A stretch of 16,724 bases of DNA from a virus (Duplodnaviria > Heunggongvirae > Uroviricota > Caudoviricetes), in the IMG/VR virus record IMGVR_UViG_2671180460_000005. The stretch is one strand, 5' to 3'. Made by a program: the position numbers and the translations under genes. How positions within the stretch are numbered: the stretch's first letter is position 1; the number at the start of each line of letters is the position of its first letter. This document shows, piece after piece, positions 12,959 to 15,875 of the stretch. Below the pieces are notes generated by a model. It had not been told where the DNA came from and did no database searches. It worked only from the letters and a program-made list of their open reading frames with translations.

Positions 12959-12969
12959 GTGGGGTGAAT

Positions 12970-15294
12970 ATGGCAGTAAAGATTTCAGGAGTCCTGAAAG
13001 ACGGCACAGGAAAACCGGTACAGAACTGCACCATTCAGCTGAAAGCCAGACGTAACAGCACCACGGTGGTGATGAACACGGTGGGCTCAGAGAATCCGGA
13101 TGAGGCCGGGCGTTACAGCATGGATGTGGAGTACGGTCAGTACAGTGTCATCCTGCAGGTTGACGGTTTTCCACCATCGCACGCCGGGACCATCACCGTT
13201 TATGAAGATTCACAACCGGGGACGCTGAATGATTTTCTCTGTGCCATGACGGAGGATGATGCCCGGCCGGAGGTGCTGCGCCGTCTTGAACTGATGGTGG
13301 AAGAGGTGGCGCGTAACACGTCCGTGGTGGCACAGAGTACGGAAGACGCGAAGAAATCAGCCGGCGATGCCAGTGCATCAGCTACTCAGGTCGCGGCCCT
13401 TGTGACTGATGCAACTGACTCAGCACGCGCCGCCGGCACGTCCGCCGGGCAGGCTGCATCGTCAGCTCAGGAAGCGTCTTCCGGCGCAGAAGCGGCATCA
13501 GCAAAGGCCGCTGAAGCGGAAAAAAGTGCCGCAGCCGCAGAGTCCTCAAAAAACGCGGCGGCCACCAGTGCCGGTGCGGCGAAAACGTCAGAAACGAATG
13601 CTGCAGCGTCACAACAATCAGCCGCCACGTCTGCCTCCATCGCGACCACGAAAGCGTCAGAGGCCGCCACTTCAGCACGAGATGCGGTGGCCTCAAAAGA
13701 GGCAGCAAAATCATCAGAAACGAACGCATCATCAAGCGCCAGTAGTGCCGCTTCCTCGGCAACGGCGGCAGGAAATTCCGCGAAGGCGGCAAAAACGTCC
13801 GAGACGAATGCCAGGTCATCTGAAACAGCAGCGGAACGGAGCGCCTCTGCCGCGGCAGACGCAAAAACAGCGGCGGCGGTGAGTGCGTCAACGGCATCCA
13901 CGAAGGCGACAGAGGCTGCGGGAAGTGCAGTATCAGCATCGCAGAGCAAAAGTGCGGCAGAAGCGGCGGCAATACGTGCAGAAAATTCGGCAAAACGTGC
14001 AGAAGATATAGCTTCAGCTGTCGCGCTTGAGGATGCGGACACAACGAGAAAGGGGATAGTGCAGCTCAGCAGTGCAACCAACAGCACGTCTGAAACGCTT
14101 GCTGCAACGCCAAAGGCGGTTAAGGTGGTAATGGATGAAACGAACAGAAAAGCCCCACTGGACAGTCCGGCACTGACCGGAACGCCAACAGCACCAACCG
14201 CGCTCAGGGGAACAAACAATACCCAGATTGCGAACACCGCTTTTGTACTGGCCGCGATTGCAGACGTTATCGACGCGTCACCTGACGCACTGAATACGCT
14301 GAATGAACTGGCCGCAGCGCTCGGGAATGATCCAGATTTTGCTACCACCATGACTAACGCGCTTGCGGGTAAACAACCGAAGAATGCGACACTGACGGCG
14401 CTGGCAGGGCTTTCCACGGCGAAAAATAAATTACCGTATTTTACGGAAAATGATGCCGCCAGCCTGACTGAACTGACTCAGGTTGGCAGGGATATTCTGG
14501 CAAAAAATTCCGTTGCAGATGTTCTTGAATACCTTGGGGCCGGAGAGAATTCGGCCTTTCCGGCAGGTGCGCCGATCCCGTGGCCATCAGATATCGTTCC
14601 GTCTGGCTACGTCCTGATGCAGGGGCAGGCGTTTGACAAATCAGCCTACCCAAAACTTGCTGTCGCGTATCCATCGGGTGTGCTTCCTGATATGCGAGGC
14701 TGGACAATCAAGGGGAAACCCGCCAGCGGTCGTGCTGTATTGTCTCAGGAACAGGATGGAATTAAGTCGCACACCCACAGTGCCAGTGCATCCGGTACGG
14801 ATTTGGGGACGAAAACCACATCGTCGTTTGATTACGGGACGAAAACAACAGGCAGTTTCGATTACGGCACCAAATCGACGAATAACACGGGGGCTCATGC
14901 TCACAGTCTGAGCGGTTCAACAGGTGCCGCAGGTGCTCATGCCCACACAAGTGGTTTAAGGATGAACAGTTCTGGCTGGAGTCAGTATGGAACAGCAACC
15001 ATTACAGGAAGTTTATCCACAGTTAAAGGAACCAACACACAGGGTATTGCTTATTTATCGAAAACGGACAGTCAGGGCAACCACAGTCACTCATTGTCCG
15101 GTACAGCCGTGAGTGCCGGTGCACATGCGCATACAGTTGGTATTGGTGCGCACCAGCATCCGGTTGTTATCGGTGCTCATGCCCATTCTTTCAGTATTGG
15201 TTCACACGGACATACCATTACTGTTGACGCTGCGGGTAACGCGGAAAACACCGTTAAAAACATCGCATTTAACTATATTGTGAGGCTTGCATAA
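12970..15294 (+). CDS. stf: Side tail fibre protein; lambda Stf-like N-terminal and shaft regions, different C-terminal receptor-binding region with His-x-His repeats
   Basis: ATG at 12970 gives [26 protein letters not shown]..., which matches the lambda Stf N-terminus as I recall it; GTG at 12964 is an in-frame alternative. Long Ala/Ser/Thr-rich repeat shaft, then the conserved fibre motif [24 protein letters not shown], then ...[40 protein letters not shown]... as in P2 H-type fibres, then a C-terminal block with eight H-x-H motifs. Confidence 0.92.
13320..14040 (+). repeat. Ala/Ser/Thr-rich low-complexity repeat region encoding the Stf shaft
   Basis: About 240 codons dominated by GCN, TCN and ACN codons, with recurring units such as AKTSETNA (near 13577-13602 and 13787-13812) and SSETNASS. 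It generates long spurious ORFs in the other frames and on the minus strand. Confidence 0.8.
14770..15213 (+). repeat. His-x-His repeat array encoding the Stf distal tip
   Basis: Eight H-x-H motifs (HTH, AHAH twice, HSH, AHAH, AHQH, AHAH, HGH) embedded in Gly/Ser-rich spacers, with recurring nucleotide units GGTGCNCATGCNCA. Confidence 0.8.
14806..14886 (+). repeat. Tandem 30-nt (10-codon) repeat inside stf
   Basis: GGGACGAAAACCACATCGTCGTTTGATTAC ([10 protein letters not shown]), then GGGACGAAAACAACAGGCAGTTTCGATTAC ([10 protein letters not shown]), then the partial unit GGCACCAAATCGACGAATAAC (GTKSTNN). Confidence 0.85.
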
Positions 15295-15875
15295 TGGCAT
15301 TCAGAATGAGTGAACTACCACGGACCATAAAAATTTATAATCTGCTGGCCGGAACCAATGAATTTATTGGTGAAGGTGATGCATACATTCCACCTCATAC
15401 AGGTCTGCCAGCAAACAGTACCGATATTGCACCGCCAGATATTCCGGCTGGCTTCGTGGCTGTTTTCAACAGTGATGAGGCATCGTGGCATCTCGTTGAA
15501 GACCATCGGGGTAAAACGGTTTATGACGTGGCATCAGGGGATGCATTATTTATTTCTGAACCCGGTCCGTTACCGGAAAATGTCACCTGGTTATCCCCGG
15601 ATGGAGAGTATCAGAAGTGGAACGGTACAGCCTGGGTGAAAGATGCAGAAGCAGAAAGACTGTTCCGGATCCGGGAGGCGGAAGAAACAAAAAACAGCCT
15701 GATGCAGGTAGCCAGTGAGCATATTTCACCGCTTCAGGATGCTGCAGATCTGGAAATTGCAACGGAGGAAGAAACCTCATTGCTGGCGGCCTGGAAGAAG
15801 TATCGGGTGTTGCTGAACCGGGTTGATACATCTTTAGCGCCGGAAATTGAGTGGCCGCAGCAACCTGTCAGTTAA
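15294..15875 (+). CDS. tfa: Tail fibre assembly chaperone, Tfa-like
   Basis: ATG at 15294 overlaps the stf stop as TAATG. 193 aa. It sits directly downstream of the fibre gene, and its N-terminal half (...[29 protein letters not shown]...[14 protein letters not shown]...) resembles the lambda/T4 gp38-type Tfa family as I recall it. Confidence 0.85.

Follow-up and report, generated by a model that had tools for sequence, protein, structure and literature searches.

A tandem 10-residue repeat in the side tail fibre of a lambda-type phage probably forms outgoing modules of a T4 gp37-type needle that are paired with returning HxH units

The window, by which we mean the whole stretch of DNA that was analysed (16,724 nucleotides; IMG/VR virus record IMGVR_UViG_2671180460_000005), carries the repeat under study in the first of two adjacent tail fibre genes:

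12970..15294, + strand: stf, side tail fibre gene, intact, 774 aa from the ATG (open reading frame list and translation)
15294..15875, + strand: tfa, tail fibre assembly chaperone gene (PF02413 Caudo_TAP, E=2.5e-43; phrog_105, tail fibre assembly)

The start chosen by the ORF finder for stf was a GTG at 12964, as against the ATG at 12970. The start of tfa shares one base with the stop of stf, and lom (phrog_108) was found upstream of stf, so that the order of the genes is lom-stf-tfa. The Pfam matches of Stf were PF08400, PF03406, PF07484 and PF03335, and its PHROG matches were tail fibre families. At the nucleotide level stf shared 98.5% identity with Escherichia phage Lambda KT232076 over 2331 nt, and 98.4% with other lambda records; 16 lambda-type records matched it over its full length with 98.4-98.5% identity. 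Stf and Tfa of phage lambda (Ur-lambda) resemble those of the window in the domain order, in the two full FDY units (10-residue units of the form GTKxTxxFDY, see below) and in having lom before and tfa after, and the nucleotide divergence between the two stf genes is about 1.5%. The reading frame in the window is intact, as in Ur-lambda, whereas the lambda PaPa records align over 2330, not 2331 nt. By every criterion that could be tested on the sequence, the repeat-bearing gene is lambda stf and its product a member of the gp37-type tip family. In a structural paper on Ur-lambda the Stf tip is described as homologous to gp37, and it was modelled there with AlphaFold3 only (PMC12617516).

A second coding or regulatory reading of the repeat region was considered and rejected. 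Two ORFs on the minus strand (14641-14904 and 14762-14998) and one in another plus frame (14633-14911) overlap the region and gave no Pfam match, and the promoter-like sites (1 vs 1.2 expected) and terminator-like sites (3 vs 0.8 expected) found between 14500 and 15400 were few, weak matches to the consensus.

The last 276 residues of Stf matched the receptor-binding tip of T4 gp37 (2XGF) with a phmmer E-value of 5.3e-73 (query 21-276 vs chain 18-242), in an alignment that runs from the collar through the two limbs of the needle to the C-terminal return segment. The T4 gp37 tip consists of a collar, a long six-stranded antiparallel needle and a small head (PMC6957217, PMC9659904, PMC12609058), and the chain in fibres of this type runs out to the head and then doubles back to the collar (PMC9659904, PMC12609058). 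Seven iron ions lie along the axis of the T4 needle, bound by HxH motifs (PMC6957217, PMC9659904, PMC12609058). The T4 head binds OmpC and LPS, and residues 1010-1026 of gp37 lie within the collar domain D10 (PMC6957217). The corresponding layout of the Stf tip, with the limbs named as outgoing (towards the head) and returning (towards the collar), is as follows:

14566..14709, + strand: collar domain, aa 533-580 (PF07484 Collar, E=7.8e-11; aligns to the collar of 2XGF)
14770..14778, + strand: HxH motif 1 (HTH), aa 601-603, outgoing, before the repeat (aligns with H883-x-H885 of T4 gp37)
14779..14805, + strand: degenerate leading unit SASASGTDL, aa 604-612, with TDL at the FDY position
14806..14835, + strand: outgoing unit 1, 10 residues, aa 613-622 (Tandem Repeats Finder; also found as residues 895-904 of T4 gp37)
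14836..14865, + strand: outgoing unit 2, 10 residues, aa 623-632 (at a 10-aa gap vs 2XGF)
14866..14895, + strand: outgoing unit 3, 10 residues, aa 633-642 (aligns with T4 GTKGTNSTGG, 905-914)
14896..14946, + strand: outgoing 14-residue unit with HxH motifs 2 and 3, in a 17-residue stretch, aa 643-659
14947..15081, + strand: head domain, aa 660-704 (low-identity alignment to the T4 gp37 head), where the chain would turn back
15082..15123, + strand: returning 14-residue unit with HxH motif 4, aa 705-718, partner of the outgoing 14-residue unit
15124..15231, + strand: returning array of four 9-residue HxH units, 36 residues, aa 719-754
15232..15291, + strand: C-terminal segment of 20 residues returning to the collar, nearly invariant in the family

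The collar domain is the proximal end of the receptor-binding tip. HxH motifs were located at aa 601, 643 and 657 on the outgoing limb and at aa 705, 719, 728, 737 and 746 on the returning limb, and the repeat (aa 613-639) lies on the outgoing limb between the first and the second of them. The sole match of PF03335 (Phage_fiber, a 14-residue repeat) in Stf was at aa 638-651, the 14-residue unit bearing HxH motifs; this family leaves out the 10-residue FDY units and the 9-residue returning units, and the FDY units at aa 613-632 had no match to any Pfam family in our scan. Tandem Repeats Finder detected the returning array at 15117-15186 (period 27, 2.6 copies), and this is the other tandem array of the window. 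The head is variable, with 55 head sequence clusters among 149 needles. An AlphaFold2 model of the Stf monomer (aa 499-774), made from a 44-sequence alignment, had a mean pLDDT of 52.6, with values under 50 and no secondary structure called in the needle.

A tandem 10-residue repeat had been described in the earlier note at 14806-14886, made of two full 30-nt units and the partial copy GTKSTNN, and our analysis confirmed both the coordinates and the peptides. Tandem Repeats Finder reported it at 14806-14874, with period 30, 2.3 copies, 80% matches and a score of 80. Units 1 and 2 were identical at 22 of 30 nt, the top identity between adjacent 30-mers in the window; in 200 mononucleotide shuffles of the window the corresponding value averaged 17.1 and never exceeded 20. 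A single residue separates the peptides of the two units (S to G), against three synonymous codon differences (ACC/ACA, TCG/AGT and TTT/TTC), bearing out the claim that the peptide is kept more than the DNA. Because the synonymous differences include TCG vs AGT for serine, the duplication must be old and the peptide must have been kept. The placing of the repeat just upstream of a His-rich tip was only partly right, since the HTH motif at 14770-14778 is 27 nt upstream and the repeat is therefore within the His-rich needle.

The outgoing array is really composed of four 10-residue units, namely the degenerate leading unit, units 1 and 2, and a trailing unit. The TDL of the leading unit corresponds to FDY, as indicated by the alignment of Felixounavirus ISAFDY with T4 SSTDL, and in longer arrays FDY units take turns with units whose last residues are TDL, PDL or VDL. 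At the other end, unit 3 retains GTK-T (the partial copy GTKSTNN, 14866-14886) and then leads to HxH motif 2.

T4 gp37 shares with Stf the 10-residue unit, the HxH motifs on both limbs and an assembly chaperone encoded downstream, whereas the head sequences differ. In the stem, the alignment of Stf to 2XGF contained exactly two gaps, one spanning 10 aa, at the second FDY unit, and one spanning 9 aa, at the returning PVVIGAHAH. T4 gp37 has one full FDY unit, two 9-residue intervals and 7 HxH motifs, while Stf has two, three and 8, respectively; outgoing unit 2 is the additional one, which sets lambda apart from T4 gp37 and from most prophage fibres of E. coli. The tips of Felixounavirus (Bas63-type) also resemble that of Stf in having a collar, an HxH needle and a head. 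They differ in that the leading unit ends in FDY, not TDL, in an extra HxH pair at the collar end and in another C-terminus. The authors who described them suggested that longer needles may have more HxH motifs (PMC12609058). When a Felixounavirus needle was used in a sequence search of the PDB, 2XGF alone was found for the needle part, and a longer solved needle was not found by sequence.

In the protein survey, 263 of 2590 homologues were read and the needles with both anchor motifs were parsed, giving 138 distinct needles from a sample that consisted mainly of enterobacterial fibres. Copy number among homologous fibre genes does vary, as the earlier note had anticipated: homologues carry 1, 2, 3 or 4 full FDY-type units. 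The distance from HxH1 to HxH2 and the number of trailing 9-residue HxH intervals were distributed in the following way:

HxH1-to-HxH2 distance of 32 aa: 2 trailing intervals, 72 of the 138 needles
HxH1-to-HxH2 distance of 41-42 aa: 3 trailing intervals, 57 of the 138 needles
HxH1-to-HxH2 distance of 52 aa: 4 trailing intervals, 5 of the 138 needles
HxH1-to-HxH2 distance of 62 aa: 5 trailing intervals, 1 of the 138 needles

Three apparent exceptions fitted the same relation on direct reading. Two of them (P0224 and P0260) are without HxH2, yet have 2 GTK units and 2 intervals; in the third (P0209), whose array contains an additional HDH, the distance sums to 52 aa and there are 4 intervals. 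The pairing was also obeyed in an independent set of 80 viral contigs, 78 of which were parsed automatically and two (L040 and L068) by hand, as well as in seven named phage fibres belonging to different groups, including a Yersinia phage fibre and two Felixounavirus fibres whose mutual difference is one FDY unit plus one 9-residue unit. Unit counts in the other named fibres were:

JK45 gp37 (Tequatrovirus): 2 FDY units, 3 intervals
Gifsy-2 Stf: 1 FDY unit, 2 intervals
P1-like JL22 Stf: 2 FDY units, 3 intervals
Phage Chuche fibre: 2 FDY units, 3 intervals

Across all sets, each extra outgoing 10-residue unit was accompanied by one extra returning 9-residue HxHxVxIGx unit, and no unmatched form was found among the 138 distinct needles, the 80 viral contigs and the 7 named phages. 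Because the unit counts were always matched, the second lambda array (15117-15186) can be taken as the partner of the 14806-14886 repeat, and the presence of two tandem arrays about 300 nt apart in the window is explained by the pairing of outgoing FDY units with returning HxH units.

A similar relation was seen for the 14-residue unit, which occurred on both limbs in 99 needles, on neither limb in 50 and on one limb only in none (149 needles). The FDY/HxH pairing held in all seven architecture classes, whether or not the 14-residue pair was there. The head family AQRAWRxGGGGNGVYIDRN was found on stems that had 1, 2 or 4 FDY units, with matching partners in every case; one head on stems of several lengths shows only that head and length are separable. 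The four-rung arrays of P0172, P0099 and P0175 had a two-unit periodicity on both limbs (in P0172, period 20 gave 16/26 vs 15/36 for period 10 on the outgoing limb, and period 18 gave 19/27 vs 22/36 for period 9 on the returning limb). The lambda-type arrays, unlike these, arose by a one-unit step. The needle of a Vibrio phage is built otherwise: both limbs have HxH units of 12 residues, and FDY units are absent.

These observations point to a reading that we hold to be probable: the repeat would consist of stacked structural modules on the outgoing strand of a T4-gp37-type needle, each forming a rung with a returning HxH unit. Each chain of the trimer would run from the collar to the receptor-binding head and back, so that the trimer makes an antiparallel needle of six strands, with metal ions in its core that the HxH motifs would bind octahedrally through His of the three chains. 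The outgoing 10-residue unit (GTKxTxxFDY and its degenerate forms) would lie alongside the returning 9-residue HxHxVxIGx unit, one of each making one rung with one HxH layer. Counted in this manner, Stf would have four rungs and 8 HxH motifs per chain, and T4 gp37 three rungs and 7 HxH motifs per chain. A unit would be gained or lost only together with its partner, because the two limbs must stay in register. The extra lambda rung would provide one more metal site than in T4 and would make the needle about 2.5-3 nm longer, a length estimated from 9-10 residues of extended strand.

A candidate register for the two limbs was obtained from the inter-strand contacts G921-F970 and H929-G964 of T4 gp37 (PMC6957217). 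The sum of the residue numbers is about 1892 in both contacts, and the numbering was checked against the sequence. Extrapolation from these two near-head contacts, assuming a continuous antiparallel register, would set the 10-residue unit of T4 (895-904) against the HxH6 unit (988-997), GTKGTNSTGG against the HxH5 unit and the leading SASASSTDL against the HxH7 unit. By analogy, the lambda pairs would be unit 1 with HAH737, unit 2 with HQH728, the trailing unit with HAH719 and the leading unit with HGH746. With units of 10 residues on one limb and of 9 on the other, the register must drift by one residue per rung. As regards packing, a plausible arrangement is that H, H, V and I of the returning strands are directed into the core and are faced by small residues (Thr, Ser and Gly) of the outgoing unit. 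The F and Y of FDY would then be close to the Gly that is conserved in the returning IGA/IGS, as in the G921-F970 contact.

The first unit, like the last HxH units, stands at a border of a DNA block that is exchanged between fibres. It is possible, though we consider it doubtful, that the conserved first unit is mainly a DNA-level crossover site at which, together with the conserved last HxH units, head cassettes are swapped, which would be compatible with a structural role. Of 5426 E. coli genomes, 3368 showed similarity to 14700-15250, and in most of the rows taken from along the ranking this similarity ended at query position 145 (14844 in the window); blastn similarity to one-unit fibres also ends at 14844. 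In the viral contigs, the DNA similarity of most fibres to the window covered 14566-14844 and 15145-15856 and excluded the centre, the 5' block thus ending at 14844 and the 3' block resuming at 15145, and in other prophage fibres it mostly began at 14559-14566. Different cores were moreover found between identical flanks, for example in P0007 vs P0016. However, an ungapped local alignment would also stop at 14844 if the fibres simply differed in length by 30 nt, and protein structure alone explains the conservation of the unit.

Because both arrays sit in one exchangeable cassette, the raw survey counts are inflated, and the truly independent events are far fewer than 138. A Fitch count on the tree of flanking sequences gave 26 changes of module number; we rejected this figure as a count of independent events, since identical flanks with different cores indicate recombination. 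The matched counts might then be a mere by-product of co-inheritance in one recombining cassette, with no structural need for register. This would agree with the different cores of P0007 and P0016, with the similarity to the window that leaves out the centre and with the fact that only seven architecture classes cover all the needles. We nevertheless regard it as improbable: the matching extends to all seven classes and to the Felixounavirus pair, no needle has the 14-residue module on a single limb, expansions by one unit and by two units are each accompanied by the proper number of partners, and a fold that doubles back (PMC12609058, PMC9659904) gives a direct physical reason for the matching.

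In the earlier note it was proposed that the copy number could tune the spacing between shaft and tip. The variation from 1 to 4 copies is in line with the proposal, but the repeat lies between HxH1 and HxH2 and never varies alone. That the repeat acts on its own as a spacer separating the fibre shaft from the His-rich tip, its copy number alone setting the spacing, is very improbable, given the HxH motif upstream of it, its position distal to the collar and inside the needle, and its variation only in company with the returning HxH array. What varies would be needle length, that is, the distance from collar to head and the number of HxH layers. The repeats had also been expected to form successive turns of a beta-structure. 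The regularity stands, as the homologous T4 gp37 unit lies in the regular, solved 2XGF structure; beta-helix turns are not expected, and by homology the repeat would instead be an extended strand of the six-stranded antiparallel needle (PMC9659904, PMC12609058).

In principle, sugar contacts are conceivable for units that are rich in Thr and Ser and have aromatic residues, and FDY units might act as surface elements that bind LPS or another receptor, their copy number tuning avidity. We find this most unlikely: the LPS- and OmpC-binding residues of T4 gp37 are in the head and tip, not in the stem (PMC6957217), and the sequence of the unit is nearly invariant across 55 head types, which points to a scaffold over a specificity element. 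A slippage-prone contingency tract with frequent length change, as a head-to-tail in-frame repeat within a host-range gene might suggest, was rejected as hardly credible, since the units are diverged (22/30 nt identical here, 17-26/30 in relatives, never identical), alignments to the 16 full-length lambda-type phage records extend over 2330-2331 nt and show no change in length by 30 nt, and the lambda-type protein clusters P0001-P0006 all have two units (6/6).

The stf gene, its homology to gp37 and the needle fold are already known and are textbook matter, and the repeat is an ordinary feature of a known protein. The paired-module rule, comprising the FDY/HxH and the 14-residue pairs, is a small, testable addition. 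The rule was not found in the literature searched, and the original 2XGF paper, which was outside that search, may already note the paired insertions. No mention of the FDY unit (FDYGTK) was found in the same literature either, the nearest statement being the remark on HxH number and needle length (PMC12609058).

The paired stacking of outgoing and returning modules, if correct, predicts 8, not 7, metal sites for lambda Stf, and in the design of chimeric Stf/gp37 fibres units would have to be added or removed on both limbs together. Needle length could furthermore be a selected, tunable trait, independent of head specificity, that sets the reach of the head through LPS, O-antigen or capsule to the porin; we put this forward as speculation and think it rather unlikely to hold. 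If length is indeed selected, the joint fixation of two separate duplications about 300 nt apart would be an unsolved step in the evolution of these fibres, and the pairing rule would be a direct recipe for engineering fibres of chosen length.

The side tail fibre gene stf (12970-15294, + strand) comprised 774 codons in an uninterrupted frame, as is also the case in Ur-lambda. In most lambda records the span aligned with stf was 2330 nt instead of 2331 nt, which is consistent with the known PaPa frameshift. The stop codon of stf and the start codon of tfa, the downstream tail fibre assembly chaperone gene, shared one base in a TAATG sequence at 15292-15296, and this overlap suggests translational coupling between fibre and chaperone. 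A record named Campylobacter phage CJLB-4 (MW057783.1, 48361 bp) was 98.4% identical to the stf of the window over its full length, and its annotation was of the lambda type; this record may represent a lambda sequence deposited under the name of another host. Within the Ala-rich part of Stf (approximately amino acids 330-346), a 21-nt tandem repeat was also present at 13957-14006 (2.4 copies, 79% matches), whose period of seven residues would suit a coiled-coil shaft.

The earlier note had reported a tandem 10-residue repeat (14806-14886), which consists of FDY units and lies on the outgoing limb of the Stf needle. Its structural partner turned out to be a second tandem array, encoding units of the returning limb. 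This array and the blocks of DNA similarity to other fibres were located as follows:

14566-14844, first similarity block, starting at the collar and reaching the first FDY unit
15117-15186, second tandem array, which has a period of 27 and 2.6 copies and encodes 9-residue HxHxVxIGx units
15145-15856, second similarity block, starting at the last HxH units and extending through tfa

For most of the other fibres, whether from prophages or phages, DNA similarity (86-91%) was limited to the two blocks; the needle centre together with the head therefore behaves as an exchangeable cassette. Similarity to 14700-15250 was found in 3368 of the 5426 complete E. coli genomes.

The tip of Vibrio phage JSF39 (PV834959.1) was distantly related, but its needle differed in design, having no FDY units and carrying HxH units of 12-13 residues on both limbs, with five motifs outgoing and four returning. 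Three homologous fibre proteins (P0180, P0085 and P0182) shared a single head-domain family (AQRAWRxGGGGNGVYIDRN...). The FDY units of their needles numbered 1, 2 and 4, and the nine-residue intervals 2, 3 and 5; therefore, head type and stem length vary independently among these proteins.
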